In this document: positions 1,780 to 17,549 of the stretch, piece after piece | Numbering within the stretch: position 1 is the first letter of the stretch | Layout of the letters: each line of letters opens with the position of its first letter | Origin: a virus | Lineage: Duplodnaviria > Heunggongvirae > Uroviricota > Caudoviricetes | Length of the DNA stretch: 18,246 nucleotides | Reading direction: 5' to 3' (one strand) | IMG/VR virus record: IMGVR_UViG_2609459834_000002 | Location: 1-18,246 of that record | Notes under the pieces: generated by a model | The model's database searches: none | Told to the model about the DNA's origin: nothing | Seen by the model: the letters and a program-made list of their open reading frames with translations, nothing else | Translations under genes and position numbers: made by a program

Positions 1780-1810
1780 CATTAAATGGACTTTGTGATT
1801 TGCAAAAAAA

Positions 1811-3537: not shown

Positions 3538-3616
3538 TTAGCCCCCTCTTAATTGCTGTTGGTCCTCTCAGATATGAGGGGAAGGGATCTTAATGACAGT
3601 CTGTTTATTATTTCAG

Positions 3617-3874
3617 TCAAATACTACCCTGTTGATGATTTCTCAGAAGCGAACTTGACTCCCAAGGGAAACTCAACTTTCCGTTAAAACCACCAGCAGA
3701 CATTCGTTCAATTTCCACAGAAATATCACTGAGCCGTTCTTCAAGCTCTGCTTTTTCTTTTACCAGACGGTTATAGCGGCTTAGATGAAGCTTTTGCTGC
3801 TCCAGCCAGTCTTCAAGCTGTTCAACAGTCATACCAGGGTTAAAAAAATATGGCTGCTGCTTTTCGCCCTGCAT
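3617..3874 (-). CDS. Hypothetical small protein (85 aa), first ORF of the late transcript
   Basis: Track ORF 3617-3943 trimmed to the ATG at 3874-3872, which has GGAGG 6 nt upstream. The longer version would include the terminator hairpin. Predicted helical, acidic; no family recognised. Confidence 0.5.
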   Translation of the reverse strand: MQGEKQQPYFFNPGMTVEQLEDWLEQQKLHLSRYNRLVKEKAELEERLSDISVEIERMSAGGFNGKLSFPWESSSLLRNHQQGSI

Positions 3875-3892
3875 TATTGACCTCCAGAAAAG

Positions 3893-3914
3893 CAAAAACC
3901 CCGCCGAAGCGAGG
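3893..3914 (-). terminator. tR'-like rho-independent terminator downstream of Q (minus strand)
   Basis: Minus-strand RNA CCUCGC-UUCG-GCGGGG (6-bp stem including one G-U pair, UUCG tetraloop) followed by U5. Lies about 50-60 nt downstream of the candidate late promoter, as for lambda pR'/tR'. Confidence 0.5.
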
Positions 3915-3964
3915 TTTGTTATGATTTCGTTAACGGCAGACATACAAAGCCCATCGTTAGGAGA

Positions 3965-3993
3965 ATCCTAACCAGATTTTTTGAAAAATGCAA
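3965..3993 (-). promoter_or_regulatory. Candidate late promoter (pR'-like) with presumed qut region
   Basis: Minus strand: -35 TTGCAT (plus 3988-3993), 17-nt spacer, -10 TAGGAT (plus 3965-3970), directly downstream of the Q stop at 4025. Hexamers are only moderate matches; the position is what supports the call. Confidence 0.3.
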
Positions 3994-4024
3994 GAATCAT
4001 GTCGCTATCTTCGGCGAAAATCAT

Positions 4025-4777
4025 TTATCTCGTCACTTTTCTTAATTGCGCCTCAGCATATGCTTCTTCCTGCCAGCACTTTGTCACCAGTTTATCAATG
4101 ACATCTGCATATCCTTTGTACCACTGATAATCCGTCAGGTCTGGTACCAGCTTCTGGACATGATGCCGCGCCAGTGTGGTTGGTAAACGGCTAAACCGGT
4201 TTCCATTGCAACGCCCACAAATCTTATAAACAGGCATGCCATGAAGCCGGGTTCTTTTTTCATCCAGGACAATACCTTTGCCCTTACACCCTCTGCACGC
4301 TGTGCTGACTTCTCCCTTACCATGACAATGCTGACATAGTTCCTTCACCCACTCTTCCTTGATAACAGATTCCCCGTTTCTGGAGTGTTTCACCACTTCG
4401 CGCAATACATTATGAAATCCCGTACCTGCACAATGCTCACAGCGAGCCTTACTTGCCGCAGATCTGGAATAATCAGCAAAGGCAAAATTCACAAGGTAAG
4501 GAATGATCTGTAGCCGGGTTTCTTCACTCAATTTATTCAATGTCGGGTTATCCAGTGCCATCGCGTAATTGAGCAGACCTTCAATCGCAAACTGAGGATC
4601 CTGAACACCAACTTTTGCCAGGAATAAGGCAAACCCAAGCGGTGCTTTCGACTGCACCATCCCCTGCGCAGCCATCACATCCGTAATCGTTAAACCACCT
4701 GAGCCTGTCGCCGGTGCGTCATCGCTCAATTTTGGAGATTTTGGGGAGTAATATTTTGGTAAGGCTTCAAGGTTCAT
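4025..4777 (-). CDS. Late-gene antitermination protein Q (phage 21/82-like Q family)
   Basis: ATG at 4777 with GGAG RBS 8 nt upstream, after trimming a 14-codon in-frame extension. Contains CxxC...CxxC zinc-binding-like motifs (CEHCAGTG, CQHCHGKG, CRGCKGKG, CGRCNG) and sits immediately upstream of the late promoter and lysis cassette. Confidence 0.85.
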   Translation of the reverse strand: MNLEALPKYYSPKSPKLSDDAPATGSGGLTITDVMAAQGMVQSKAPLGFALFLAKVGVQDPQFAIEGLLNYAMALDNPTLNKLSEETRLQIIPYLVNFAFADYSRSAASKARCEHCAGTGFHNVLREVVKHSRNGESVIKEEWVKELCQHCHGKGEVSTACRGCKGKGIVLDEKRTRLHGMPVYKICGRCNGNRFSRLPTTLARHHVQKLVPDLTDYQWYKGYADVIDKLVTKCWQEEAYAEAQLRKVTR

Positions 4778-4790
4778 GCTCGTTCTCCAC

Positions 4791-5786
4791 TTACGCCAGT
4801 ACGCCAATTGCCAGCGCACGATCGATAAAACGAAATATCAGCTCCAGCTGGGAGCCATACTTCTCTTCAAATGCCACGGTATCCGCATGCAGCTCGTCGT
4901 GATGCTTTCTGCACAAAGGCAACACAAAGAGGTCATGCGCTTTTGTTCCCATTCCACCCTGACCGTGACCTATCAGGTGGTGGGGATCATCAGCAGGCTT
5001 ACCACAACATGCACACGGCTGTGTCTTAACCCAGCGCGTGTACTTTTCATTAACCCAGCGGCGACGTTTTGGGCGTAACATAAAAGACTCCGGCGACTCC
5101 GGATCCACTTTCAGCGCCAGCACCTTTTTCGCTTTATCCTGGATAATGCTGGTGGCAGGAACCGAAGGCACAAGGTCACTCTCCCGGGTGACAGACGGCA
5201 CAACAGGCTTCGGTAATCTCAGTGCCTTACGGGCTGCACTTTCCGGTAAGGCATCCGCCAGATCATTACGAACCAGCCACCAACACAGTTCCGGCATTGT
5301 CACAACGTGACTGTCATCAAAACCGAGATCCCGACGCACAACAGACAACACCCAGCGGGCACAGTTATCCGTTGCCATTGATTCCAGCCGTTCCGTGAAC
5401 TGATCGCGCAGCTGGTTATCGCAGTGCCAGCACAGACGGATTGCGCCCGGAGCGTGTCGCATTGTGGTCATGTTCTCGCTGTGCCAGTCGGAATGAGGCC
5501 ACTGGCAGCCTTTTTCACGAAGTAACCAGCTTTCAAGACATTCCACGCCACCAGCACGACGGATCACTGCCTCATTGCGGAACACGGCCCGAACGGCAGG
5601 ATCATCCGCCAGCGGTTGTGATGCCGCCGGAACGGCACCACTGGCGAAAGATGAATAACGTTCCGGCTCAGGCTCCAGCAGAACACGCCCCTGCATAAAC
5701 AGGGGCATCAGCTCTGAACCTGGCCTGAACAATACGATCCCCATACGCGGGGCAATTTCAGGGGTCAGTAGTGCTCTCACGGTCAC
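4791..5786 (-). CDS. DUF968-family protein (YdfU-like) with HNH-like C-terminal motif
   Basis: 331-codon ORF. C-terminus has CACCGKPADDPHHLIGHGQGGMGTKAHD...CRKHHDELH. Recalled as resembling the E. coli Qin-prophage gene upstream of its Q. The first codon at 5786 is GTG directly after the KilA-N stop, so the start is uncertain. Confidence 0.75.
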   Translation of the reverse strand: MTVRALLTPEIAPRMGIVLFRPGSELMPLFMQGRVLLEPEPERYSSFASGAVPAASQPLADDPAVRAVFRNEAVIRRAGGVECLESWLLREKGCQWPHSDWHSENMTTMRHAPGAIRLCWHCDNQLRDQFTERLESMATDNCARWVLSVVRRDLGFDDSHVVTMPELCWWLVRNDLADALPESAARKALRLPKPVVPSVTRESDLVPSVPATSIIQDKAKKVLALKVDPESPESFMLRPKRRRWVNEKYTRWVKTQPCACCGKPADDPHHLIGHGQGGMGTKAHDLFVLPLCRKHHDELHADTVAFEEKYGSQLELIFRFIDRALAIGVLA

Positions 5787-5787
5787 C

Positions 5788-6597
5788 TCAATGAACGGTA
5801 TCGAGCAGCTTTAACAGCTCAGGGAATCGGGATTCGAAGAAATGCGGCTGCGTCTCGCGCGGATTTGCAGGACTGGTGATGTTCTTGCCGAACATGCAGC
5901 CTTTCGCTGTCAGCGACCAGAATTTTTTGATGTTGTTAATCGCAGTGCGGCTGTATCGTTCACGTTGTTCAACGATCCCCAGCTTCGCCATCTGGTGATA
6001 TGCCTGATTAGCTGTCAGGCGGATACCATACTGCTTCAGCAGTGCACTCAATGATAGCGTGGGGCGGCTTGAGCCATCAGGCGCGTCAGCAGGAGCATCA
6101 ATGGCATAGCGTGGTGCCAGATTCGGTAAGCCAACAGCCTCCTGGAGTTTCTGACAGGCACCAAGCACAGATGAGTTAGACAGGTTTAATTCCCGACGCA
6201 TAAAGTCCAGCAGAATCACACCAGCCTGCATCTTGTCAGCAGCCTGCCCGGATAATTTTTCCGGTGCGCTGGTTACCATATCGAAAGTACGGATCACCTT
6301 CAGATGGAATGACGGGCTGATCCACATTGCATAGGCATACACCAGTTCCTTGCAGACATACGTTCCCCGTTCATTTCCCCCATGAATCACACTCACCGGG
6401 TCAACACCCAAATTCTGGGTGTTGGTCAATTCATGAACAAGCTCAACAGTTTGTTGGCTGGAAAGAAACTTTCCCGGCTCCTTGGTTCTGGCATTTGCAC
6501 CAGATGCTACTGCTGCGCGATGCAGATCGTTCAGGCTGTAACGCCCATAAGCATCACGACGAACTTCAATACCATCAATGACCATCAGATTATTCAT
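5788..6597 (-). CDS. KilA-N domain protein (antirepressor-like), second paralogue
   Basis: ATG at 6597 overlapping the RusA stop. N-terminal MVIDGIEVRRDAYGRYSLNDLHRAAVASG is a KilA-N signature; the 170-aa C-terminal domain is unassigned. Confidence 0.8.
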   Translation of the reverse strand: MNNLMVIDGIEVRRDAYGRYSLNDLHRAAVASGANARTKEPGKFLSSQQTVELVHELTNTQNLGVDPVSVIHGGNERGTYVCKELVYAYAMWISPSFHLKVIRTFDMVTSAPEKLSGQAADKMQAGVILLDFMRRELNLSNSSVLGACQKLQEAVGLPNLAPRYAIDAPADAPDGSSRPTLSLSALLKQYGIRLTANQAYHQMAKLGIVEQRERYSRTAINNIKKFWSLTAKGCMFGKNITSPANPRETQPHFFESRFPELLKLLDTVH

Positions 6598-7006
6598 ACT
6601 TCGTTTCTCCTCTTAATCGGGCGGCTGCCCCCGCCGTTTTCTCGTACTTACTGATAGTGATCTCGACCTTCCCTTCCGGGATAACCGGTCCCCACTCCAC
6701 CAGCATTCTTTTCACCTGACTGTCGTCTTCCCACACACCCGCGTGGGTCAGGGCGTCAAACAGCGCCTTGTTATAGTTGTCCAGATCGCGGATCCGGTTA
6801 TCCGGAGGAAACAACACGATCTCCACTGAAGCAGGTGCCGACGTTGGTTTCGGCAGACGACGTAACTGCTCAACTATTGCTGCGCACGCCGCGCTCTGAA
6901 ATTTTCGCCCCGCCGCGCTTATCAGGCTCTTACCAGCAAATGCCCCTTTATTGGGGTGTCGCCAGTACGTGTTCACGCTGGGCGGGAAAGGCAGGATCAG
7001 CTTCAT
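6590..7006 (-). CDS. rusA: Crossover junction endodeoxyribonuclease RusA (Holliday junction resolvase)
   Basis: 138 aa; N-terminal MKLILPFPPSVNTYW and RDLDNYNKALFDAL are RusA signatures. ATGA-coupled to the upstream gene. Confidence 0.9.
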   Translation of the reverse strand: MKLILPFPPSVNTYWRHPNKGAFAGKSLISAAGRKFQSAACAAIVEQLRRLPKPTSAPASVEIVLFPPDNRIRDLDNYNKALFDALTHAGVWEDDSQVKRMLVEWGPVIPEGKVEITISKYEKTAGAAARLRGETKYE

Positions 7007-7329
7007 ACTTTCAGGCCCCTCTCATGTAACCAGTGGGTTGCACGCAGCCTGGCGTTTTCCTCACCGGCAAGCAGTGAGCGGATAATCCCGACCGCCTCGC
7101 TGTCGTCGTCCTTCACCGCGGTATGAAGAGTGATACCCCGGGCCACGCCACGCTTTATCGTGATGACGCCTTTTTTCTCCAGTGCGCGAAGATGTTCCAC
7201 CGCTGCATTCACTGAACGGTATCCCAGCATGGTTGCCACCTCCTGATTGGTTGGCGGGAAGCCACGTTCTTTCTGGTAAGAAATCAGCATATCCAGCACC
7301 TGCTGCTGGCATTGAGTTAACGTCGTCAT
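7003..7329 (-). CDS. LexA-type N-terminal DNA-binding domain protein (no peptidase domain)
   Basis: 108 aa; LTQCQQQVLDMLISYQKERGFPPTNQEVATMLGYRSVNAAVEHLRALEKKGVI resembles the LexA winged-HTH. No S24 protease motifs. ATGA-coupled on both sides. Confidence 0.6.
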   Translation of the reverse strand: MTTLTQCQQQVLDMLISYQKERGFPPTNQEVATMLGYRSVNAAVEHLRALEKKGVITIKRGVARGITLHTAVKDDDSEAVGIIRSLLAGEENARLRATHWLHERGLKV

Positions 7330-7979
7330 GCCGCCATCTCCCTGACCAGTTTTTCCGCCTGCTGGCGAACCTGCGCCAGAAACGCCTCACCACATGCCTC
7401 AAGTTCATCACGCCCGATGTAGCTGATTGCCGGTCCCTTCCAGGTCTTGTCGAAAACAGCAATAGCACCAGCGAAGAAAGCGCCTGTCGGCACCTGCTTC
7501 TCGTCCTTCGGTATAAACCAGGCAGGCAGTTCAAAACCAATACGCCCGCGAATAAAAGCAATATGATCTGCATCTTCCGGCCACCACACTTCGCTGGTGG
7601 CCGCTTTGATCAGGAAAACATAGCGCCCGCCCTTATCACGCATGGCACTGGCATGTTTCATGATGTAACGCATGCCGGTGATGTATTGCCCCTCATGCTG
7701 ACTGGCGCGGCTGTATGGGGGATTACCAAAGGCAGCACCTTTAAGCTCCGCAAGACGTTCTGACCAGTCATGCGCCAGCGCGTTATCTTCCGCCGTGTAA
7801 TACGCGGCACATTTGGCGTTATCACCGTCAGTAAACAGATCCAGAACAAACGGGCCAAACAAGGTGTTAATTCCCCAGAAAATGTTATCCGGCGTGCGCC
7901 ACTGATCGCCCACTTCCTTCAGTTCATGGGCTGGTTTGTTCCGCAGTTCCACCAGCGCCTGGCAATATTTATTACTCAT
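7326..7979 (-). CDS. Phage DNA N-6-adenine methyltransferase (Dam family)
   Basis: Start assigned to ATG at 7979-7977 (MSNKYCQ...), which overlaps the upstream TAA as TAATG. Contains the catalytic NPPY motif (FGNPPYS). The track start at 8012 is an in-frame upstream extension. Confidence 0.85.
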   Translation of the reverse strand: MSNKYCQALVELRNKPAHELKEVGDQWRTPDNIFWGINTLFGPFVLDLFTDGDNAKCAAYYTAEDNALAHDWSERLAELKGAAFGNPPYSRASQHEGQYITGMRYIMKHASAMRDKGGRYVFLIKAATSEVWWPEDADHIAFIRGRIGFELPAWFIPKDEKQVPTGAFFAGAIAVFDKTWKGPAISYIGRDELEACGEAFLAQVRQQAEKLVREMAA

Positions 7980-8467
7980 TAAGCCCCCACGTAATTCCCT
8001 GAGAGATACCACTCTTCACCCGATGCAGCGCGCTTGCTGCTTTTCCGTAAGCACCGCTCACGACGCGCCAGAAAATTGTTTCGTTCTGGCTGGGAGTGGC
8101 TTTCACGGAATGCCGCCATCCACACGGTTGCAGCACGACGGTATAAGCCCCTTGACTCCAGTTCTTCAGCCTGGCGGGTCAGGCACAAAATCACCCGGGG
8201 GTCGTTAGTGCCGACATAGAACTTGCGCACAGGTCTGGTTTCACGAACTGGTTGTGGTTCCGGCTCCTGCGCTCTCTCAGTCAGGCGCGGGAAATGTCTG
8301 CGTGTATCCCCTTCACAACGGTGAGCCACACGCCCACTCTGACGTAACTTGCTTGCTGACTGCAGAACGCGCTGCCGTGAGTAACCAGCAAAAGCATCCG
8401 CAATGTCTCCGGAAGTACACCCCGGATGGGCTTCAATGAATTTCTGAACTTCATTCAAAAGACTCAT
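7979..8467 (-). CDS. Hypothetical regulator, PerC/ANR-like (tentative)
   Basis: Start at ATG 8467-8465 (the track begins at GTG 8473). C-terminal LESRGLYRRAATVWMAAF...RRERCLRK resembles PerC/ANR-family proteins as recalled; N-terminus looks like a small HTH. Assignment from memory only. Confidence 0.45.
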   Translation of the reverse strand: MSLLNEVQKFIEAHPGCTSGDIADAFAGYSRQRVLQSASKLRQSGRVAHRCEGDTRRHFPRLTERAQEPEPQPVRETRPVRKFYVGTNDPRVILCLTRQAEELESRGLYRRAATVWMAAFRESHSQPERNNFLARRERCLRKSSKRAASGEEWYLSGNYVGA

Positions 8468-8469
8468 GA

Positions 8470-9288
8470 TCACCCCCTGAATCCTGCCGGGATCTGGCTG
8501 TAGTCCACGTTGTCGTAACTGGCTTTGAAGTACGGGTCCTCGCGTCTGGCTGCAGATACCGCAGGAACTTCCCAGGATTCTTCGAAATGACGATCCGGAC
8601 CAAAGAACGTGACAGCCTGTTTCACAAATTGTGTGCCGCTGTTACCCATCGCAGATACCCAGCCCGCGTAGCGTTTCACACCTTCCAGCATGGTTTCGGG
8701 GTTTACTCCCTCATTCAAACGGGCTTTCCAGGCTTTGAAGGCTGCAGATTTTGAATTGCCACCAGCACGTTTGGGATATGCCAGCCATGCCTGCTCAAAC
8801 TCCGGAGAGTATTCCGGTCGGTTTGAACGAACTCGCACGGACTCATCAACTGATGCACCAACAGCTATTGGTTCATTGACTGGTTCTTTGACTGGTTCAA
8901 AAGAGTGACTGGTTCTGGGTGAATCTCCTGCACTACCCCCTGGTGCAACTCCTGCACTACCTGGTGAATTTGCTGCACCAGATAGTGAATTATTTGCACT
9001 ACCCCCTAGTGAATCTCCTGCACCATCCAGATGAAGGAGATAGATATTACTTGAGTTACCTTTTTCACCTTTCCGGGTGACTTTTTTTACCAGCCCGGAC
9101 TCACAAAGGGCCGCAATATGATTCATCACAGAACGTTTGCTAATCTCGCACTGGTCAGCAATATGCTGATAGCTGGGCCAGCACTCACCCTGATCGCTGG
9201 CATTATCAGCCAGCTTGATCAGAACCAGTTTTCGCAATGGATTACCCACTCGAATTTTCATCGCTTTAACCATCAGCTCCATACTCAT
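8470..9288 (-). CDS. Phage replication initiation protein (N-terminal HTH domain, repeat linker, C-terminal domain)
   Basis: 272 aa. N-terminal HTH (PLRKLVLIKLADNASDQGECWPSYQHIADQCEISKRSVMNHIAALCESGLV), a Gly/Ser/Ala-rich linker encoded by tandem DNA repeats, and a basic C-terminal domain. Sits at the lambda O position after the cro/CII-like genes. Confidence 0.7.
   Translation of the reverse strand: MSMELMVKAMKIRVGNPLRKLVLIKLADNASDQGECWPSYQHIADQCEISKRSVMNHIAALCESGLVKKVTRKGEKGNSSNIYLLHLDGAGDSLGGSANNSLSGAANSPGSAGVAPGGSAGDSPRTSHSFEPVKEPVNEPIAVGASVDESVRVRSNRPEYSPEFEQAWLAYPKRAGGNSKSAAFKAWKARLNEGVNPETMLEGVKRYAGWVSAMGNSGTQFVKQAVTFFGPDRHFEESWEVPAVSAARREDPYFKASYDNVDYSQIPAGFRG
8877..9028. repeat. Iteron-like tandem repeat array inside the replication gene (candidate phage origin)
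   Basis: Five tandem 21-24-bp repeats at 8917-8940, 8941-8961, 8962-8982, 8983-9006 and 9007-9028, consensus tGGTGAATctcCTGCACTACCccc. Three copies of TGACTGGTTC at 8877, 8889 and 8907. A moderately AT-rich stretch follows at 9029-9090. Confidence 0.5.
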
Positions 9289-9509
9289 GCTGCACCTCCG
9301 AGATGCTTCATGTTTTTTCCGGAGCGAAAGGCTATAAGCGGCATACTGACGCGGTAATTACGGCCCAGCGGTTCACAAACCACCTTCTGACATTCACGGT
9401 CAACCAGGCTAACACGTAGAACATGCCCTGCAGGCGTGGTGTACCACTGACCGGGGCGAGGACAACGGAAAGTCTGATTGGTAAATCGTTTGAAAATATT
9501 CCGGATCAT
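9285..9509 (-). CDS. Hypothetical protein (74 aa), translationally coupled between Rha-like and replication genes
   Basis: ATG at 9509 overlaps the Rha stop (ATGA) and its stop overlaps the replication-gene ATG at 9288 (ATGA). No recognised domain. Confidence 0.5.
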   Translation of the reverse strand: MIRNIFKRFTNQTFRCPRPGQWYTTPAGHVLRVSLVDRECQKVVCEPLGRNYRVSMPLIAFRSGKNMKHLGGAA

Positions 9510-10063
9510 TTGCGCCCCCTTACCTCTGAAGAGTTCAGCGACGAATGAATAAGACGGGCAAGAAATGCCGCATCGTTAATTCGGTCATACAGACTTACAG
9601 CCAGAGGTGATTCAGCTTTTTCCAGCATGGGATAAAGCTGCTGCAACCAGACCTGATGAATTGATGAAATGTAGGAATAGAGAACGCTGGCGTTATGTGC
9701 AACGTCGCTCGGTACAGAGGGCTTTGAAAGCTGTTTCTCCATCTGGTTAAAGGCATTGATGTATGCCTCTTTGAACTGGGCAGCACGTTTCCCCGTGAAA
9801 CCCATAGCAAGAAACGCAAAGCCGTCGCGGGTTATTTGATAGCAAGGAAGTTTGCGAGTACCGCCGTTGGGCTGGCGTACCAAAATTGATGTCTCCGCAA
9901 AATTGCGGGCACAAAACTCTGGAGAACAATCCAAAATGCGGATCTTTTTCAGAACATCGTCATGACGTTTAGAGAAGAAGTCAGCAACAGCCAAAGAAGA
10001 TGTAACAGCCTGACCATCAACGATGGCAATTTCAGGTTGAGAGAGGGTTGGGAGAGTAGTCAT
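9506..10063 (-). CDS. Phage regulatory protein, Rha family
   Basis: Product from the internal ATG at 10063-10061 (MTTLPTLSQPEIAIVDGQAVTSSLAVADFFSKRHDDVLKKIRIL...YQITRDGFAFLAMGFTGKRAAQFKEAYINAF) matches the Rha N-terminal domain. The track ORF extends in frame to 10669; that extension is treated separately in findings. Confidence 0.75.
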   Translation of the reverse strand: MTTLPTLSQPEIAIVDGQAVTSSLAVADFFSKRHDDVLKKIRILDCSPEFCARNFAETSILVRQPNGGTRKLPCYQITRDGFAFLAMGFTGKRAAQFKEAYINAFNQMEKQLSKPSVPSDVAHNASVLYSYISSIHQVWLQQLYPMLEKAESPLAVSLYDRINDAAFLARLIHSSLNSSEVRGRK

Positions 10064-10665
10064 GGTGACAGCCCCGGTAGTCAGTTTTTTAGAAAACTCA
10101 CCACATGGGACGCCAATCACAGAGGTGGTGAGACGTACAGGGTTGGCGTTACCGGAGACTACCGAACCCGGCCCGACCGAAGTCGGCCCTGTACGCCCCA
10201 CCATAATTTGGGCGTAGCAATGCTCATGACACGAAAAAACCGCATGAGCGCGGTTATGCTCAGTAATCAATTTCAGGACGCCAATCCCGGCACCCGTTTT
10301 ATAAGGTGCCTGAACAGTGTAACGTCCCGGAATGGCAGAATCAATGTGCTGGTGGTCCTTCACACTCAACAAAATCACGCCTGAATTTCCACAAAGGACT
10401 AAAGCACTCATGCGGGTAGTCTTTGCGAAGATAGATAACGCGCTGTGTTTCTGGCTCCCAACGAATAACATGAACATAAAGTCCTCTTCCGTCACGAAAC
10501 CAGCGGTTAAGTTCCTGCACAACTCGCCCCCCACAGTCAGGTAAAGTTCTCTGTGGTTACTTACAGCCAGGTGATTTGGTAATCTGCATTCATGCCGTAA
10601 CAACAGGTGTTCAGCGACGCTGACCACCTGTTGTTGCGACAAACGGTTATTTGCCGTTAAACTGT

Positions 10666-11229
10666 TCATGCGTTAGTTTCTCCACAGACACAAAACGCCA
10701 CGACGCCCGGAGCTGCACACTCGCGGGCGTCACTCTTTTCTGGAGCGCAAAAGATTTTGTAGACCAGTGCTGCATGCTCCTGGAGCTTCGAAATTGACAG
10801 ATACAACTCATCATTAATTGCTGTCTGCTCGTGTGGCTCCACTACCCCATCTTCGATTGCCGAACGAATCTGCTTTGAGTAACTCCCGATCTGTTCGATG
10901 ACTTCCAGCAGGCGCTGGTTTATATCGGCGTTCTCTACTTCCTCAATTTCAGGAAGCGATACAAACACCCCACCAGCAGACTGTGCGACAGCATCCGCAA
11001 TGTAGTGAGTGCCAGCCGCGCGCTGTAAAATCATTGCCCATCCCAGCGGGAAAATCTGATCGCCATCTGCACGAAGGCGGTTGAATAAAGCGTTCTCTGT
11101 TACATCCAGCCACTCAGCAGCTTCAGCGTAACCCCCCGGCAACGCCGCGATAGTTTTTCTGACAGCTTTCACGTACCACTCAGGCTGTTTTTCTACTTTC
11201 CAGTGATGCTTACCCACGGTTAGCCTCAT
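10666..11229 (-). CDS. CII-like / YdaT-like regulatory protein (tentative)
   Basis: 187-codon ORF immediately downstream of the cro-like gene on the same strand, the CII position. No strong RBS at ATG 11229; an in-frame GTG at 11217 has GAGG upstream. Family assignment is by position and weak recollection. Confidence 0.45.
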   Translation of the reverse strand: MRLTVGKHHWKVEKQPEWYVKAVRKTIAALPGGYAEAAEWLDVTENALFNRLRADGDQIFPLGWAMILQRAAGTHYIADAVAQSAGGVFVSLPEIEEVENADINQRLLEVIEQIGSYSKQIRSAIEDGVVEPHEQTAINDELYLSISKLQEHAALVYKIFCAPEKSDARECAAPGVVAFCVCGETNA

Positions 11230-11260
11230 CGTTCTGTGGTTAAAAATTGAAGGTGTTCTG

Positions 11261-11461
11261 TTAATCTTTCGGATAGATATCCGGTCTTAAGTCAGATTTC
11301 GTAATTGCACCTGACGTGCATTGCTCAAGTTTTTTAGCCAGCACAAAACTGGCTTTTTTATAACCATTGAAAACCAGCCGTAAGTAGCCTGGTGTTGAGC
11401 CAACTTTTCCGGCCAACTCGCCCTGCTGTTCTTTGGTTAAAGAGTCCCAATACGCTTTCAT
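11261..11461 (-). CDS. Cro-like HTH regulator (YdaS-like)
   Basis: ATG at 11461-11459 with GGAGG RBS about 10 nt upstream. The 66-aa product MKAYWDSLTKEQQGELAGKVGSTPGYLRLVFNGYKKAS...LRPDIYP is divergent from the repressor gene. The 167-aa track ORF is an upstream extension running through the operator region. Confidence 0.7.
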   Translation of the reverse strand: MKAYWDSLTKEQQGELAGKVGSTPGYLRLVFNGYKKASFVLAKKLEQCTSGAITKSDLRPDIYPKD

Positions 11462-11464
11462 ACA

Positions 11465-11536
11465 ATATGTACCTCCGATATACATATTACATGATTGAGA
11501 TGAACCTTCAAGATACTTGTACCCTATCGGTACAAA
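11465..11536. promoter_or_regulatory. Immunity operator/promoter region (OR-like; pR leftward, pRM-like rightward)
   Basis: Two operator-like inverted repeats: 11465-11487 ATATGTA-N9-TACATAT and 11518-11536 TTGTACC-N5-GGTACAA. Candidate pR on minus: -35 TTGAAG (plus 11504-11509) and -10 TAATAT (plus 11482-11487). The cI-like ATG at 11552 has no convincing RBS, suggesting a leaderless or weakly initiated mRNA. Confidence 0.5.
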
Positions 11537-11551
11537 GGTTTTAATTTCGTT

Positions 11552-12226
11552 ATGAAAACAGTCCATGACATCCGGCGGTCTAACGCCAGAAAACTGAGAG
11601 ATGGTGTTGGCGGGAATTCTTCCTTTGCCACCATGATTGATCGCGAGCCAACCCAGACCAGCAGGTTTATGGGGGATGGTGCTACTAAAAATATCGGTGA
11701 CAGCATGGCACGGCACATCGAAAAATGTTTCGACCTGCCTGTCGGATGGCTTGATCAAGAACACCAGACAACAAACATCACAAAAAAACCTGATGTTTCA
11801 ATCACTAACAAACAAATAACGTTAGTCCCTGTCATATCATGGGTACAGGCCGGAGCATGGAAAGAAGTTGGCTATTCTGAGGTTGATTTGAGCACAGCAG
11901 AAACTTATCCCTGCCCTGTACCCTGTGGCGAAATGACTTATATCTTGCGGGTGATTGGTGATTCAATGATTGATGAGTACCGCCCGGGAGACATGATTTT
12001 TGTTGATCCCGAAGTCCCTGCCTGCCACGGTGACGACGTTATTGCATTGATGCACGATACAGGCGAAACCACCTTTAAGCGGTTGATAGAAGATGGAACA
12101 CAGCGTTATCTCAAAGCATTAAACCCAAACTGGCCTGAACCTTACATTAAGATCAACGGTAATTGCTCTATAATTGGCACAGTGATTTTCTCAGGAAAAC
12201 CAAGAAGATACAAAATAAAGGCCTAA
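11552..12226 (+). CDS. CI-like prophage repressor (HTH plus LexA-like S24 peptidase domain)
   Basis: 224 aa. C-terminal domain has the S24 autocleavage-fold motifs (VIGDSMIDEYRPGDMIFVDPE). Divergent from the cro-like gene and followed by a strong terminator. Confidence 0.85.
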   Translation: MKTVHDIRRSNARKLRDGVGGNSSFATMIDREPTQTSRFMGDGATKNIGDSMARHIEKCFDLPVGWLDQEHQTTNITKKPDVSITNKQITLVPVISWVQAGAWKEVGYSEVDLSTAETYPCPVPCGEMTYILRVIGDSMIDEYRPGDMIFVDPEVPACHGDDVIALMHDTGETTFKRLIEDGTQRYLKALNPNWPEPYIKINGNCSIIGTVIFSGKPRRYKIKA

Positions 12227-12239
12227 TCAATATTTATAA

Positions 12240-12260
12240 CCTGCTTCGGCAGGTTTTTTT
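12240..12260 (+). terminator. Rho-independent terminator after the repressor gene
   Basis: CCTGC-TTCG-GCAGG hairpin followed by T7 (12254-12260), 14 nt after the cI-like stop. Confidence 0.7.
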
Positions 12261-12264
12261 ATAC

Positions 12265-12297
12265 TTGACAATGTACCCTCGAGATACATAATGTATC
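12265..12297 (+). promoter_or_regulatory. pL-like promoter with overlapping operator (OL-like)
   Basis: -35 TTGACA at 12265-12270, 17-nt spacer, -10 ATAATG at 12288-12293. The spacer holds a 19-bp operator-like site ATGTACC-N5-GATACAT (12271-12289), overlapped by the perfect palindrome GATACAT-A-ATGTATC (12283-12297). Confidence 0.5.
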
Positions 12298-12575
12298 TAA
12301 AAGAAACATGTCACAGGCAAGATTAAACAAAATTTGGTTGTAACACGGCGTATGGCACATGCGTCGTTAGCGGTCTGGGGACGTTAAAGGGGACAATCCA
12401 CTCCTTGCTCGGGCAAACAAACCAGGTAGCCGGAATGTGCAAGTCAATGATGATGCTGATAAGACGCCTAACCAGCGTGGCGGTTCGGTTTGACACCTGG
12501 GAAGAGACCAGGGTGCAACGATGAGGGCATTTATGGAACCGCGACAAAGTGTGGTGCCGTAACTGGCTAAGTGCT

Positions 12576-12596
12576 CTCAGCGTTGTGGTGAATGCG
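12576..12596 (+). repeat. 21-bp direct repeat, copy 1 (CTCAGCGTTGTGGTGAATGCG), followed by a GC hairpin
   Basis: Differs from the copy at 13204-13224 by one base. Followed by hairpin GCGCA-GGCTGA-TGCGC at 12594-12609. Lies in the roughly 450-nt leader between the pL-like promoter and the first small ORF. Confidence 0.6.
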
Positions 12597-12739
12597 CAGG
12601 CTGATGCGCGAAAGACATTGCAGCTATTGCGGAAAAGAGCTGTTCGGCGGGGCAATTAAACGCCCGTATCTGGAGGTTAAAGAACAAAATGAAAGTCCAG
12701 ATTTTAAACAATAACTGTGAAGTCGTTTGGGCGTAAAAC

Positions 12740-12946
12740 ATGACCGCGCGTAGACCAAGGGAGGAAAAAGTGGGAATAGTTAGAAATCAAGCAGATATAT
12801 TGAAAATCAGCTCTGAATTGCTTGGAGTTTTGAAAAGTGAGCTCACCGCACATGGCATCGAGCCCACTGACGAAAATTTAAGTTGGGTTTTGTCGATTAT
12901 TCAACAATCACTCAAGCCCAGCCTCAGCAAACTTTTTATCGAGTAG
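12740..12946 (+). CDS. Hypothetical small protein (68 aa) at the N-gene position; possible N-like factor or moron product
   Basis: ATG at 12740 lies 3 nt after the stop of a 15-codon upstream ORF (12689-12736, MKVQILNNNCEVVWA, GGAGG at 12672-12676). An in-frame GTG at 12770 has a strong GGGAGG RBS. N-terminus MTARRPREEK is mildly Arg-rich. Sits in a visibly AT-rich island. Confidence 0.4.
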   Translation: MTARRPREEKVGIVRNQADILKISSELLGVLKSELTAHGIEPTDENLSWVLSIIQQSLKPSLSKLFIE

Positions 12947-13099
12947 TGCTTCGAACTTATCGTAAAGCTTGCTTATGTCGTCTATCGGGTTTTCTGACGT
13001 ACTGTAATTTTTATCTGATGTCATGGCAGCAGTCTGATATGCAGTGTGAGTCTTAACCGATAGTTGGAATAAATAAAGAATTTTTTCTTCTTTGGTCAT
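12908..13099 (-). CDS. Hypothetical small protein (63 aa), convergent with and overlapping the 12740-12946 ORF
   Basis: ATG at 13099-13097 with AAGGA RBS 7 nt upstream. Product MTKEEKILYLFQLSVKTHTAYQ...DKKFAEAGLE. Its 3' end overlaps the convergent ORF by 39 nt. No family recognised. Confidence 0.4.
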   Translation of the reverse strand: MTKEEKILYLFQLSVKTHTAYQTAAMTSDKNYSTSENPIDDISKLYDKFEALLDKKFAEAGLE

Positions 13100-13203
13100 G
13101 ACTATTTCCTTCTTGGCTATATGAAAACACCAAGATACCACCGAGCCTGAAGTGGTGAAAAGACAGGCACATAACAGCTAAGTATTTTCAACCAGAGAGA
13201 ATC

Positions 13204-13224
13204 CTTAGCGTTGTGGTGAATGCG
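13204..13224 (+). repeat. 21-bp direct repeat, copy 2 (CTTAGCGTTGTGGTGAATGCG), followed by a short GC hairpin
   Basis: Near-identical to 12576-12596 (20 of 21). Followed by TGCG-GCTCAG-CGCA at 13221-13234. Marks the right boundary of the AT-rich island. Confidence 0.6.
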
Positions 13225-13355
13225 GCTCAGCGCACGCGGGTTAAGGTTGAGGCTGACAGTCGACCTTCTGTGGATACCCACCCGCCTGGTGTGCAACCTT
13301 CGCCAGGCACCGGGAGGCACCCGGCACCACAACTTTATGCTGTGTGTAGTCCTAG

Positions 13356-13400
13356 CGGTACCAGCTTGTACCATTGCTTCCGGCTGGTACCGTCCTTTTT
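13356..13400 (+). terminator. Terminator-like hairpin (tL1-like candidate) upstream of rdgC
   Basis: Perfect 10-bp inverted repeat CGGTACCAGC (13356-13365) / GCTGGTACCG (13383-13392) with a 17-nt loop, followed by TCCTTTTT (13393-13400). The loop is long for a canonical intrinsic terminator. Confidence 0.4.
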
Positions 13401-13565
13401 ACAAAACAGAGAAGAGCATCACCGGACGACGGGCTCATAACCCAATCCACCCGGGCAAAAAGAAAGCGGTCTCTGCAAGCCGCCGACCAATGCAGGTGCC
13501 CTTCTCTGTTGTGTATGGAGAAACTAACTTTTTAGCGCCGGTGCAGAGGCGTTGAGGAACCGAGA

Positions 13566-14483
13566 ATGAACAATCCGTTTTTCAAAAATATGTTGGTGTA
13601 TCGCATTAGTCGCGATTTCACCATCAACCAGGAAGAGCTGGAACAGCAGCTTGAACTATTTCGCTTCACTCCATGCGGTAGCCAGGATATGGCAAAAACC
13701 GGTTGGGTATCACCACTTGGTCAGCTGTCAGATCGCTTGCATCACACTGTCAATAATCAAGTGTTGTTGGTTATTCGCCGGGAAGAAAAAATACTGCCAT
13801 CTCCTGTCATTGCTGAAGAACTGCGCAAGCGTGTGGCGCGTCTGGAATCCGATCAGGGGCGTCGCCTCAAAAAAACTGAGAAAGATTCGCTGCGTGATGA
13901 AGTGTTGCACTCCCTGCTTCCTCGGGCGTTCTCCAAAAACTCGACTGTTAGTTTGTGGATCAACGTCACAGACGGTCTGATCATGGTTGATACAGCCAGC
14001 GCTAAACGTGCCGAAGACTCACTGGCCCTGCTTCGTAAAACTCTCGGTTCTCTCCCGGTGGTACCGCTGACTATGGAAACGCCGATCGAACTAACTATTA
14101 CCGACTGGGTTCGTTCCGGTAGTGCCCCTGCTGGCTTTAGCCTGGGTGATGAAGCCGAACTGAAAGCTATTCTTGTAGATGGCGGTATTGGACGCTTTAA
14201 AAAACAGACTTTGGTCAGTGACGAAATTCATGTGCATCTGGAAGCTGGCAAAGTAGTTACAAAGCTGTCTATCGACTGGCAACAGCGCATTCAGTTCGTT
14301 CTTTGCGATGACGGCAGCATCAAACGCCTTAAGTTCTCTAATGAGATTACAGAACAAAACGACGATATCTACCGTGATGATGCGGCTCAGCGGTTCGACG
14401 CTGACTTTGTTCTAATGACCGGCGAGCTTATCTCTCTCATTAACGGATTAACAACCTCTCTCGGCGGCGAAGCCAAGCGATAA
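13566..14483 (+). CDS. rdgC: Recombination-associated protein RdgC (prophage-encoded homologue)
   Basis: 305 aa with GAGGA RBS 8 nt upstream. Matches recalled E. coli RdgC along its length ([123 protein letters not shown]). Confidence 0.9.
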
Positions 14484-14562
14484 ACACCAGGCAGCAATTA
14501 CCCCATAAGCATGGGTTGGGTTGCTGCACTCCAAATCTGGCGAAGGTTGGTTCGGATGGCAG

Positions 14563-14817
14563 ATGAATCATATCGAATTTATTGAGAAGAACGTCAGGGA
14601 AATCCTTATAAAACAAGGCTTTTCTTCTTCAGTAGCGCAGGGGGGGGCATGGCAAGCGATTGATTTATATAAGCGCATGTCACAAGCCAGTAAAAAGGGT
14701 GCAATTTTTGATGACGTGATGAGGCATGCGAAAGCATGGGCAGATAAACAGGTTTCGAAAACTGAAGTCACGAAAAGTAAACGCAATCAACCTAAAAACC
14801 AAGGTGGTCTGTTTTAA
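14563..14817 (+). CDS. Hypothetical protein (84 aa)
   Basis: Track ORF 14521-14817 begins at TTG; trimmed to ATG 14563 (MNHIEFIEKNV...). Weak RBS. Basic C-terminus. No family recognised. Confidence 0.45.
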   Translation: MNHIEFIEKNVREILIKQGFSSSVAQGGAWQAIDLYKRMSQASKKGAIFDDVMRHAKAWADKQVSKTEVTKSKRNQPKNQGGLF

Positions 14818-14869
14818 ATATTCAGGCCAATAAGTTTGCGCGGTGCAGCGCGCCAATATGGAGAAAACC

Positions 14870-15196
14870 ATGAGCTACATTCAGACATTATCCGGTAAAA
14901 AATTTAACTACCTGACCGCCACAATCGACGATATCGATGTAGAGGATATCGCGACGGCGCTTTCCAACATCTGTCGATTCGCTGGGCATCTCCCAGAGTT
15001 CTACAGCGTGGCTCAGCACTCTGTGCTTGTAAGCCAGATTGTGCCGCCAGAGTTCGCCTTTGAAGCGCTGAAATTCGATGACTTCCAGATTGTCCACTAT
15101 GGCGGTTCTGAGGATTACGCGAAAGGTTATATCGACTGCCAAAACAACTACAACAAAGCTCTGACCGCCGCTGGCATTGGCGTGAAGGGGAAGTGA
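14870..15196 (+). CDS. HD-domain-like protein (YfbR-type 5'-nucleotidase fold), short and with the HD dyad altered; possibly degenerate
   Basis: ATG at 14870 with GGAG RBS 6 nt upstream (MSYIQTLSGKKF...). Motif CRFAGHLPEFYSVAQHS resembles the first metal-binding region of HD hydrolases, but the expected L-H-D-A motif reads EALKFDD (His replaced by Phe). The protein stops at 108 aa, against roughly 180-200 for intact HD domains. Confidence 0.45.
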   Translation: MSYIQTLSGKKFNYLTATIDDIDVEDIATALSNICRFAGHLPEFYSVAQHSVLVSQIVPPEFAFEALKFDDFQIVHYGGSEDYAKGYIDCQNNYNKALTAAGIGVKGK

Positions 15197-15197
15197 G

Positions 15198-15672
15198 ATG
15201 GCGGAGCAAACCATTTTAGACATGTGCTGCGGTTCCCGCATGTTCTGGTTCAACAAGCAGGACACCCGCGCCGTGTTCACTGATATCCGCGCCGAAGAGC
15301 ACGAGCTGTGCGACGGTCGCCGCCTGGTTATCAGTCCAGACCTGATTGCCGACTTTCGTTCACTGCCGTTCGCTGATTCTTCTTTTCCGGTTGTGGTGTT
15401 TGACCCACCGCACTTGGAGCGCGTTGGCCAGTCTGCCTGGATGGGTAAAAAATACGGGCGACTGAACAAAAAAAACGTGGCGCTCTGACTTACGCGCCGG
15501 TTTCAAAGAAGCGTTTCGGGTGCTGTGGCCACGCGGCGTACTTATTTTCAAATGGAACGAAACACAAATCCCAGTGAGCCAGATTCTGGCGCTTACAGAT
15601 GTGAAACCTGCAATTGGCCAGCGTACCGGGAAGAACGATAAAACCCACTGGATTATTTTTGTGAAGGACTAA
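15198..15672 (+). CDS. Small SAM-dependent DNA amino-methyltransferase (DPPH motif) interrupted by a +1 frameshift at an A8 tract
   Basis: Frame 0 (15198-15488, 96 aa) carries motif I LDMCCGS and motif IV FDPPH and stops at TGA 15486-15488. The +1 frame is open from 15466 to the TAA at 15670-15672, ending 3 nt before the next ATG. The only region open in both frames (15466-15485) contains the A8 run at 15468-15475. One fewer A would give a single product of about 156 aa. Confidence 0.6.
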
Positions 15673-15675
15673 CTC

Positions 15676-16230
15676 ATGACAACTAAACACCCGGCGCACG
15701 GTCCTTTATCCCTCGATCGCCTGCACCAGATACGCGAACACCTGCAGCATGATACCCAGTACTCAAACGGCGGGAACAGAGCTTATATTCTCGCTGATAT
15801 GTTGAAGGTGATTGATGAGGTGCTGGCATCGAGGAACGCAGAGCCAGTATTGCCAGATGAAAAGCCGATGCCAGAAGCGTCGAAAATGCATGCAATAGAC
15901 GCTGTAGCTGCAATCGCAGAGGTCAGAGGATGGAACGCCTGCCGCGCCGTCATGCTTAAGGCTGGCAACTCTCCGGTAACTCAGGATGGTTACGTGCTGG
16001 TCCCGAAGAAACTAACCGCTGAGAACGGCGCAAAGAGTGTGCTGTCCGGTGAGTTTTCAGAAACGAAATTTATAAACTGCCCAGAGTGTTTTGGTGATGA
16101 TGATTGCGAAACCTGCGACGGCAGCGGAAGAATTGAAATCACCGTTCCTGTCACATGGACGACCATCAAAGCTATTTGGGCTAAAGGTGTCGAGCATTTC
16201 GCAGCAGCACCGCAGCAGGAGAATGTATAA
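15676..16230 (+). CDS. Hypothetical protein with C-terminal CxxC...CxxCxGxG zinc-finger-like motif
   Basis: 184 aa, tightly packed between neighbours. Motif CPECFGDDDCETCDGSG resembles a DnaJ-type zinc-finger repeat. Otherwise unassigned. Confidence 0.6.
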   Translation: MTTKHPAHGPLSLDRLHQIREHLQHDTQYSNGGNRAYILADMLKVIDEVLASRNAEPVLPDEKPMPEASKMHAIDAVAAIAEVRGWNACRAVMLKAGNSPVTQDGYVLVPKKLTAENGAKSVLSGEFSETKFINCPECFGDDDCETCDGSGRIEITVPVTWTTIKAIWAKGVEHFAAAPQQENV

Positions 16231-16804
16231 CGTGAACAATTTAATGATCGACCTTGAGTCCATGGGCAAAAAACCGAATGCCCCTATTGTCTCCATTGGT
16301 GCCGTATTCTTCGATCCGCAAAGCGGTGATCTTGGTCAGGAGTTTTACACCGCCGTTAATCTTGAAAGCGCTATGGAGCAGGGAGCTGTGCCGGATGGTG
16401 ACACTATTCTGTGGTGGTTAAGACAAAGCTCAGAAGCACGATCAGCAATCTGTGTTGATGATGCGATGCCGATATCGTCTGCCCTATCTGAACTGAGCCA
16501 TTTCATTAATCGGCATTCTGATAACCCAAAATATTTAAAAGTTTGGGGCAATGGAGCTACTTTCGACAACGTTATATTGCGCGGCGCATATGAGCGCGCC
16601 GGCCAGCTTTGCCCGTGGCAATTTTGGAACGATCACGACGTCAGAACCATCGTCACATTAGGCAGAGTTGTGGGTTTCGATCCAAAGCGAGATATGCCAT
16701 TCGATGGGGTTGCACATAACGCACTGGCCGATGCGCGACATCAAGCAAAATACGTGTCCGCGATCTGGCAGAAGTTGATTCCGGCCACCAGCAGAGACCT
16801 GTAA
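16223..16804 (+). CDS. DnaQ-like 3'-5' exonuclease (DEDD family)
   Basis: Exo I motif LMIDLESMG, later H-x4-D-type motif (GVAHNALADARHQAKY), about 190 aa. Start is ambiguous among ATG 16223, GTG 16232 (best-spaced relative to AGGAG at 16217-16221) and ATG 16244. Track ORF 16091-16804 is an in-frame upstream extension. Confidence 0.8.
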   Translation: MYNVNNLMIDLESMGKKPNAPIVSIGAVFFDPQSGDLGQEFYTAVNLESAMEQGAVPDGDTILWWLRQSSEARSAICVDDAMPISSALSELSHFINRHSDNPKYLKVWGNGATFDNVILRGAYERAGQLCPWQFWNDHDVRTIVTLGRVVGFDPKRDMPFDGVAHNALADARHQAKYVSAIWQKLIPATSRDL

Positions 16805-16842
16805 TTTTCCCTGGGTGCAGCCAGGTTGTATGGAGAATGTCT

Positions 16843-17115
16843 ATGAATACTTTGTTTTTACTTATGGCTGAGTTCAACACGCCTAACATCGAGCTGTCAG
16901 CTGTATGCCAAAAGTATTTCGGTATGAGCCCTAACACAGCAGAAGCGAAAGCAAATGCCTGTCAGTTGCCGATCCCGACTTATCGTGTAGGAACATCACA
17001 GAAAGCGAAGCGCTGCATCAACATTCAGGATCTTGCTGAGTATATAGACCAGCGGCGTGAAGAAGGCAGAATTGAGTGGGAAAGGGTCAGAACGAACAAA
17101 CAGAAAAATAGTTGA
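16843..17115 (+). CDS. PrtN-like small DNA-binding protein (tentative)
   Basis: Start at second ATG 16843 (GGAG 7 nt upstream). MNTLFLLMAEF...CQKYFGMSPNTAEAKANACQLPIPTYRVGTSQKAKRCINIQDLAEYID resembles the pyocin-activator PrtN family as recalled. Followed by a terminator. Confidence 0.5.
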   Translation: MNTLFLLMAEFNTPNIELSAVCQKYFGMSPNTAEAKANACQLPIPTYRVGTSQKAKRCINIQDLAEYIDQRREEGRIEWERVRTNKQKNS

Positions 17116-17141
17116 GTTTCACACAGATAAAAAAAGAAAAA

Positions 17142-17157
17142 CCCGCCAGATGGCGGG
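17142..17157. terminator. Rho-independent terminator between convergent genes (strong for minus strand, weaker for plus)
   Basis: CCCGCC-AGAT-GGCGGG hairpin. The minus-strand RNA is followed by a U-rich run (plus-strand A-rich 17128-17141); the plus strand has only CTTT after the stem. Confidence 0.6.
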
Positions 17158-17180
17158 CTTTCAAAAAGCACCAGCTATGA

Positions 17181-17354
17181 TCATGCTGCCTTGCGACGAC
17201 GAAGCTTACCCTGCTGCTCTTTACCAGAGACAATAGCGTGAGTGAACGCGTTAGGAGCAGCCTTCATCAGAACTTCAACAGCAGCACCCATACCTGCGAA
17301 TGCTTTCATTGTGTCGAACTTAACCTGTGGCTTGGTTGCTTTTTGATCTTTCAT
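17181..17354 (-). CDS. Hypothetical small basic protein (57 aa), absent from the ORF track
   Basis: ATG at 17354-17352 with GGGAG RBS 8 nt upstream; stop at 17183-17181. Product MKDQKATKPQVKFDTMKAFAGMGAAVEVLMKAAPNAFTHAIVSGKEQQGKLRRRKAA. Terminator about 20 nt downstream. Confidence 0.5.
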   Translation of the reverse strand: MKDQKATKPQVKFDTMKAFAGMGAAVEVLMKAAPNAFTHAIVSGKEQQGKLRRRKAA

Positions 17355-17549
17355 AGAAAACTCCCGAGACGATAAGGGCGCCTCTAACCTCTTAGTTAAA
17401 GTTAGCTTGTCCAGCCAACTTGTGCCAATCGGTTCCTCCGATTGGTGACATCGTTTTCAGTAGTGCGAATACATAACGACTGTCCCAGATGTACCTTTAA
17501 GGTAATCCGGATGGATATCCTACAATCTGTAGACACTCGGCGTCTACAT

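Follow-up and report, generated by a model that had tools for sequence, protein, structure and literature searches.

Why a phage regulatory gene should be preceded by a long stop-free stretch in its own reading frame is the question raised by a locus in the DNA analysed here, 18,246 nucleotides (nt) of the IMG/VR virus record IMGVR_UViG_2609459834_000002 (positions 1 to 18,246; Caudoviricetes), referred to as the window throughout. The window is the immunity and early region of an e14-like lambdoid prophage of E. coli. On its minus strand, the in-frame ATG at 10063-10061 opens the gene proper of a Rha-family regulator of 185 amino acids (aa; 10063-9506), and the segment under study, 10669-10064, continues this frame upstream for 202 codons to the ATG at 10669. 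As the initial annotation had reported, this frame is stop-free; the whole open reading frame (ORF; 10669..9506) has 387 codons, of which the C-terminal 185 are Rha. Three explanations had been offered for the extension, namely an uncharacterised N-terminal domain fused to Rha, a separate upstream gene, and a long structured leader or operator region controlling Rha. The analysis presented here indicates that the 606 nt are probably a composite regulatory region of the type known from P1 immI, P4 immunity and the Gifsy-1 isrK-orf45-anrP cassette, rather than a protein domain.

The idea of a structured leader is essentially borne out, albeit only between 10344 and 10064, where a putative promoter, the isrK RNA with its terminator, the C4 RNA and target sites over the ribosome-binding site of Rha were found. 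The putative sigma-70 promoter, of constitutive type, resembles PisrK (10344..10316) and consists of a -35 hexamer TTGATT (10344-10339), a 17-nt spacer and a -10 hexamer TACACT (10321-10316), with a predicted start at G10309, 6 nt past the -10. It leads into the small RNA (sRNA) isrK (10309..10233), the counterpart of P4 seqA and P1 a1/b1, which is recognised by Rfam family RF01394 with 60.1 bits against a gathering score of 50. This RNA carries two decoy sites, a1 (10284-10278) and b1 (10268-10261), as well as an intrinsic terminator, found by a terminator scan, with a stem at 10255-10238 and a U run. The antisense RNA of C4/CI type (10208..10121) matches RF01695 over its full length (1-87) with 82.3 bits (gathering score 45, E 3.7e-15). 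It comprises a 17-bp closing stem, a UUCG hairpin, a second hairpin with the b' loop (10164-10157), and the a' segment (10149-10143). The hairpin CCGAC-UUCG-GUCGG noticed earlier is indeed present on the minus strand at 10186-10173 and is the first internal hairpin, or apical stem-loop, of C4. The C4 target region (10116..10072), equivalent to P4 seqC and P1 a2/b2, contains a2, UUGGCGU (10116-10110), and b2, GACUACCG (10082-10075), and the latter adjoins the GGGG Shine-Dalgarno sequence (10075-10072) of the Rha ATG.

The loops and their targets fit each other. The b' loop, CGGUAGUC, is complementary to b2, and a', ACGCCAA, is complementary to a2 and to the identical a1 in isrK, while the match of b' to b1 of isrK, GAUUACUG, includes two G-U pairs. 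From annotated E. coli loci and from viral contigs, the latter searched with a frame-neutral DNA pattern, 109 unique cassettes were gathered, in which 37 distinct b loops and 20 distinct a segments occur. The mean longest exact complement between cognate partners is 9.0 nt for b'-b2, 7.0 nt for a'-a2, 7.4 nt for b'-b1 and 6.8 nt for a'-a1, against about 4.7-5.0 nt for non-cognate partners in all four pairings. Moreover, the b2 match ends 11-14 nt 5' of the downstream ATG in most cassettes, and the same ATG and Shine-Dalgarno sequence are conserved before Rha, Icd-like, 'ash' and Kil genes. Within C4, stem cells are paired in 98.6% of cases; among 60 unique sequences, compensatory double changes are seen at 11 of the 27 pairs, five of the pairs being fixed by the search pattern. 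By Rfam, isrK and C4 occur together in all 10 of 10 E. coli loci, and also in P4 and Gifsy-1. A generic promoter scan gives no call at TTGATT-17-TACACT; the same geometry recurs in unrelated upstream contexts, the T/A/T of the -10 is invariant in 106-109 of the 109 cassettes, and the sequence aligns with the region of Gifsy-1 in which experiments have defined the isrK promoter (PMC4825925). Both the identity of the elements and the co-variation of loops with targets were observed in this analysis.

The regulatory system itself is already known from P1 immI, P4 immunity with eta and kil, and Gifsy-1 isrK. As a class, RNAs of the C4 family are characterised by maturation through RNase P from a longer transcript and by repression in vivo. 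The P1/P7 immI operon (c4 - icd - ant), the founding member of the Rfam C4 family, sets the pattern: the a' and b' loops of c4 bind a2 and b2, which lie at the ribosome-binding site of the gene that follows, and the decoys a1 and b1 lie upstream. There, c4 acts on icd, while ant is expressed by translational coupling; the controlled product is an antirepressor, and co-variation of loops and targets sets the immunity specificity. The window shares this loop-target pattern, the P1 side of the comparison being established knowledge. Unlike in P1, b2 of the window directly adjoins the Shine-Dalgarno sequence of Rha.

Phage P4 offers the closest parallel to the long frame. Its immunity region (PLE - seqA - cI, encoding CI RNA, - seqC, with eta and kil nested) has the same order of elements, and the Rfam models of isrK and C4 match it. 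Counted from its first ATG, the P4 eta frame has 214 codons; it begins 5' of the internal promoter, covers seqA, CI and seqC, and is in phase with the C4 AUG. It matches the full Phage_ASH profile (E 4.5e-23), the family that also matches aa 117-212 of the window ORF. Furthermore, the start of P4 kil, MATTLTP, aligns with the start of Rha in the window, MTTLPT. The same architecture is seen in the window, where the long ORF spans promoter, isrK, C4 and targets in the C4-AUG frame and the internal in-frame ATG lies beside b2. The stop-free frame is the counterpart of P4 eta, with Rha nested like kil. Control in P4 works mainly by Rho-dependent termination at timm. PMC10111431 (citing Forti et al. 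1999) states that a constitutive promoter inside eta gives a transcript soon terminated through interactions of CI and seqA, that Kil is produced only on read-through, and that translation of eta blocks termination. In P4, eta is coupled to an upstream alpA/vis homologue (PMC10111431), and in the window the long ORF is coupled to ymfL, whose stop codon overlaps the ATG at 10669 as ATGA. There are also differences. The host element is a lambdoid e14-like prophage with immunity of CI/Cro/CII type, and not a satellite; the nested gene encodes the 185-aa Rha instead of the 65-aa Kil; and the long ORF of the window also runs over a 49-nt hairpin and overprints a gene for DUF4222.

In the Gifsy-1 prophage of Salmonella, isrK and C4 stand in the same order and spacing before an antirepressor-like gene, in the cassette isrK-orf45(STnc1160)-anrP. 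Rfam places C4 exactly on orf45/STnc1160 and the c4-a1b1 family ('a1,b1 target') on isrK, whose middle region pairs with the a' region of C4, the pairing corresponding to helix b-I of PMC4825925. The orf45 AUG is the AUG conserved at C4 position 5, which is 10204-10202 in the window. According to Hershko-Shalev et al. 2016 (PMC4825925), PisrK drives isrK as well as read-through into orf45-anrP; the resulting long RNA stays translationally silent, IsrK supplied in trans turns on translation of the gene that follows, and STnc1160, an RNA of about 80 nt, is processed from the orf45 region (PMC4825925). In contrast to the window, the C4 loop of Gifsy-1 is 4 nt shorter, and orf45 ends at the anrP AUG (AUGA) without reading on into the gene. 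AnrP is of the ORF6N type and not Rha, and no homology was detectable between it and the Rha of the window. In addition, the Gifsy-1 cassette follows antQ in the late region and does not lie between cII-like and replication genes.

The second explanation, a separate upstream gene, also holds in part: such a gene exists, although in a different frame from the one proposed. It encodes a small DUF4222 protein of 59 aa (10520..10341, minus strand, GTG start), lies out of frame with the long ORF, and is preceded by a GGGGGG/GAG Shine-Dalgarno-like run; its stop codon falls inside the -35 hexamer of the PisrK-like promoter. It is matched by Pfam PF13973 (E 9.5e-14; 51.1 bits against a cut-off of 27) and phrog_1343 (E 1e-36), and is annotated by PGAP in relatives. 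The statement that the extension has no recognisable domain is thus contradicted twice, by this ORF and by Phage_ASH (PF10554), which matches residues 117-212 of the 387-aa ORF with E 7e-11. Among relatives, third positions of the DUF4222 frame, which are second positions of the long frame, take 24 of 44 variable sites; over 37 unique sequences the variable sites by codon position are 23/16/47, so that 47 of 86 are at the third. Omega over 10520-10341 is 0.03-0.27 in the DUF4222 frame and 1-4 in the long frame. A protein search of viral contigs for DUF4222 returned 80 identical copies and no added divergence, and the diverged copies were taken from loci already collected. The gene is also found alone. 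In one E. coli strain (L006:1556-2117), a RelE/ParE toxin-antitoxin pair is inserted between DUF4222, which has an internal stop there, and isrK-C4.

The open frame must next be set against chance and nucleotide conservation. The C4-AUG frame is the frame of Rha and of the 387-aa ORF. Chance alone is an improbable cause, as the initial annotation had argued: (61/64)^202 is 6.1e-5, and when the 606 nt were shuffled 5000 times with dinucleotides preserved, not one shuffle lacked stops in that frame; the open frame is therefore not due to chance. Pure chance for the whole frame was rejected on these shuffles, on the stop counts in the cassettes and on resampling within lineages. Another alternative is that the frame has no function and is a by-product of nucleotide conservation in the RNA genes and DUF4222, with some help from chance. 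The three sub-segments, when shuffled singly, are open with chances of 0.09, 0.055 and 0.06; an ancestral open frame would be retained in isrK and C4, given their conservation and high G+C content; the sampled cassettes are mutually related; and Gifsy-1 works without a long frame (PMC4825925). However, the frames differ strongly from each other. Between the start of isrK and the downstream ATG, the C4-AUG frame is interrupted in 6 of 109 cassettes, at 10 distinct positions, whereas the second frame has a stop in 90 (29 positions) and the third in 108 (31 positions). The distance from isrK to C4 is 101, 98 or 110 nt, and insertions and deletions are multiples of 3, in agreement with the alignment. 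Moreover, in most cassettes no stop interrupts the frame over at least 165 nt upstream, in diverse and unrelated contexts. Over the first 50 DUF4222 codons it is stop-free in 37 of 37 unique sequences, the sole long-frame stop in three e14-type sequences lying near the DUF4222 3' end; resampling of synonymous codons gave a chance of openness of 0.03-0.10 per lineage, with a product of about 7e-6 over four lineages saturated at synonymous sites. P4 eta, as described in PMC10111431, also offers a reason for keeping such a frame, one that has experimental support. On balance, we consider a functionless by-product unlikely.

What is kept is openness and not amino acid sequence. Variability by codon position is flat in the long frame (0.80/0.86/0.82), compared with 0.43/0.35/0.85 in Rha at the same loci. 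Since the frame is open and lacks codon-position periodicity, selection keeps the frame open but not its amino acids. Rare codons, which the initial annotation had stressed, are only modestly more common here, with 13 of 202 codons (7 TTA, 2 AGA, 1 AGG, 1 CGG, 2 GGA) against 6 of 185 in Rha. It had also been suggested that stop codons in homologous prophages would separate a coding from a noncoding segment. Such a check would mislead, for the frame is mostly without stops and yet the segment is not a protein domain. Likewise, a 387-aa product, if detected, would not argue against RNA-based control, since the frame is kept open as in P4 eta.

Taken together with the known systems, these observations suggest how the locus may work. 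In the lysogen, PisrK would yield short isrK RNA and some read-through transcript, from which C4 would be excised. Going by the homologous systems, C4 would be processed and would repress Rha: its two loops would pair with a2 and b2, thereby occluding the Rha ribosome-binding site and keeping the antirepressor-like Rha off, and the look-alike a1 and b1 sites of isrK would sequester C4 and so tip the switch. On transcripts of the early promoter, which come through ymfT and ymfL, ribosomes ending ymfL would restart at the ATG at 10669 and cross the hairpin, DUF4222, the promoter, isrK, C4 and the targets. Translation across the frame would prevent the RNA structures, C4 pairing and termination, and early transcription into Rha and the replication genes would thereby become insensitive to RNA immunity. 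Because the window has each structural element of P4, carries Rha in the kil position and couples the frame to ymfL, the extension is taken as an eta-like bridge; its role is most likely, by analogy, to allow ribosomes arriving from ymfL to go on translating over the cassette when the transcript stems from the early promoter. That the whole 606-nt frame, including the first third homologous to ymfM, is such a translational bridge, selected only to be stop-free and unconstrained in its amino acids, is a tentative proposal and a rather doubtful one.

Several points weigh against this interpretation. Six of the cassettes do have stops in the C4-AUG frame. Most of the 109 cassettes derive from enterobacterial prophages, the sample is phylogenetically non-independent, and the search pattern fixed 23 C4 positions. 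We infer promoter activity at this locus from homology. P4 eta is the sole case in which translation of the frame has been shown to counter termination, and in the window an anti-termination or anti-C4 effect would follow by analogy. Gifsy-1 has an in-frame TGA 6 nt upstream of the orf45/C4 AUG and no eta-like long ORF, therefore the bridge is not universal. Finally, a strong hairpin (10641-10593) sits within the proposed translated bridge and is not explained by the model.

This hairpin contains the 37-bp palindrome that had been described at 10599-10635, and it is present there exactly as stated. It lies in the spacer between ymfL and DUF4222 (10641..10593, minus strand), and between 10669 and 10521 it is the only element that could be assigned. 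With its flanks it has 24-nt arms (10593-10616 and 10618-10641) that are 88% complementary, and as RNA it folds with -31.4 kcal/mol (z = -4.6; 0 of 200 shuffles fold as well). The alternative that the palindrome governs Rha, either as an operator bound by CI/YmfK, Cro/YmfT, YmfL or Rha or as an intrinsic terminator, draws on these features, namely the perfect 11-bp arms and the very stable hairpin. It also draws on locus L003, where a symmetric A>C / T>G pair keeps the palindrome perfect, and on locus L130, where a different sequence again forms a hairpin. A terminator role was rejected despite the G+C-rich stem, for no U tract follows on either strand and the terminator scan gives no call. 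An operator array was likewise rejected: no further copy of the half-site occurs in the window and the dyad is poorly conserved. A known RNA family was dismissed as well, the Rfam matches on the palindrome being only sub-threshold chance hits (mir-2032, togavirus frameshift element). The perfect arms are in fact peculiar to the window; most relatives of 98-99% identity have two uncompensated changes in the left arm, loci L024 and L092 have a weak fold (z -1.2), and the palindrome is absent from other contexts that still carry the cassette. The claim of a conserved operator thus fails in close relatives, where the dyad is mostly imperfect, as well as in more distant ones, where it is lost. Additionally, the palindrome lies more than 280 nt upstream of the putative promoter of isrK, C4 and Rha, and no promoter adjoins it. 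Control of Rha by the palindrome is accordingly improbable, and we interpret it as a partly conserved hairpin of the RNA between ymfL and DUF4222, not as a controller of Rha. It may have a role in mRNA processing or stability, or in re-initiation at 10669. As a speculation, the two neighbouring changes that perfect the dyad are compatible with templated quasi-palindrome mutation.

The remaining alternative, that the 387-aa ORF is a true fusion in which the N-terminal 202 residues form a functional folded domain on Rha, can appeal to a frame that is open and conserved as such, to 'Rha family' proteins of 321-383 aa listed by PGAP and PHROGs (phrog_821), to the Phage_ASH family over its middle part and to the ATGA overlap with ymfL, which suggests translation, but it is highly improbable given that the extension has no third-position bias in this frame where Rha is strongly biased, that omega points to the other frame across DUF4222, that amino acids change wherever RNA stems co-vary, that the segments occur independently on unrelated genes or on none, and that the region holds a putative promoter, a terminator and two Rfam RNAs. 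An N-terminal protein domain was therefore rejected on the absent periodicity and on omega, and the modules are found separately with other partners. The Rha domain itself is wholly 3' of the ATG at 10063. It is recognised by Pfam PF09669 (Phage_pRha, E 2e-27; 96 bits against a cut-off of 29.9) and TIGR02681 (90.8 bits against 45.95). The initial annotation had the Rha domain start at the ATG at 10063; the Pfam domain proper begins about 20 codons later, at residues 223-312 of the long ORF.

The first third of the frame has a counterpart in the K-12 prophage e14. There, ymfM, annotated as the gene of a 'cell division inhibitor' (YmfM/SfiC), has the same ATGA overlap with ymfL and the same MNSLT start as the long ORF, to whose first ~110 codons it corresponds in position and frame (BLASTP 32% identity, E 4e-7). 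Unlike the window, K-12 e14 lacks Rha, ymfM ends 10 nt before ymfN/oweE, and no isrK or C4 was found in it at E <= 0.1. The K-12 gene (L133:4323-4661), homologous to 10669-~10340 of the window, holds an intact, unannotated DUF4222 ORF of about 61 aa in another frame, with an AAGGAG Shine-Dalgarno sequence and a TTG start. A preprint assigned filamentation to ymfM by cloning the whole ORF; text searches of it turned up neither a frame-specific mutant nor any reference to a start or stop codon. Whole-ORF cloning thus appears to leave the frame causing filamentation unseparated.

The cassette lies in an orderly early region. Upstream are ymfK, encoding a LexA/S24 repressor (11552-12226, plus strand), and, on the minus strand, the Cro-like ymfT (11461-11261) and ymfL of the CII/CP76 family (11229-10666). 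Downstream of Rha, again on the minus strand, follow orf74 (phrog_1153; 9509-9285), an O-like replication gene (9288-8470) and a PerC-family gene (8473-7979). Four successive start/stop overlaps of 4 nt join ymfL, the long ORF with Rha, orf74, the O-like gene and the PerC gene, and this chain suggests a single translationally coupled early operon. Hundreds of E. coli genomes, as well as phage 1720a-02, contain nearly identical DNA. No tRNA or tmRNA was found in the window.

The isrK-C4 cassette is combined with various genes on its 3' side. These include Rha, non-Rha 'ash' proteins, an Icd-like gene (E. coli locus L009), a P2-type 'derepression protein' (in which case the RNAs carry no annotated ORF), P4 Kil and the ORF6N AnrP of Gifsy-1. 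Among named phages, the cassette is carried by Stx2a/2c phages, mEp460, cdtI, ST64B and SfV, the last of which labels it 'immunity region'. In P2-like prophages (L010 and L011:1133-1454), isrK-C4 occupies an unannotated gap before the 'derepression protein' gene, which is in a different frame, and the C4-AUG frame is open for 648 nt, across the entire derepression gene. Tandem arrays of two to three isrK-C4-ORF cassettes with a period of about 656 nt occur at L038:9289-11266 and also in L025, L026, L073, L087 and L091. Their ORFs of 219-220 aa each begin just 5' of their own promoter and overlap the next by 4 nt; the C4 and isrK loops differ between the copies, while the C-terminal domains are nearly identical. 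In a Rac-like prophage of O157:H7 with kilR, ydaE and ydaF, the DicF sRNA (Rfam, 55 bits; L008:909-960) lies about 240 nt upstream of isrK-C4-Rha.

Current annotation treats this region as protein. RefSeq/PGAP and PHROGs place 'Rha family' or 'ash family' calls of 297-383 aa across it, and the two sRNAs are unannotated. The Rha coding sequences of RefSeq at relatives have 297, 321 or 383 aa with differing starts, always over isrK and C4, and inconsistent annotation is seen at L001:2281-2376 and 2330-3295, L002:1781-1960 and 1890-2783, and L003:912-2063. DUF4222 is a gene, a pseudogene or uncalled, depending on the genome. What is modelled by Phage_ASH (PF10554), by the PGAP name 'ash family protein' and by PHROGs 821, 995 and 3960 is isrK, C4 and the target sites in translated form (10034-10321 in the window; L131:1331-1705), and the Phage_ASH 'domain' has no codon-position periodicity. 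Recognition of the cassette fixes the start of Rha at 10063 and explains why Phage_ASH tracks two RNA genes.

Beyond the literature found, the analysis adds quantitative evidence that selection on the frame is for stop avoidance only, and it reveals the continuity of this frame with e14 ymfM across an out-of-frame and strongly constrained DUF4222. Over the 109 cassettes, stops are avoided although the amino acids are unconstrained, a clean case of selection for being translated, whatever the product. If the bridge interpretation is true, the SfiC inhibitor of K-12 would more likely be the DUF4222 peptide inside ymfM than YmfM, and the overlap of the two offers a cheap and direct test of which frame causes SfiC filamentation. 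The P4/P1-type RNA switch with its eta-like ORF appears to be a portable module guarding antirepressor-like genes in many lambdoid prophages, and bears on how the prophages that carry it are induced.

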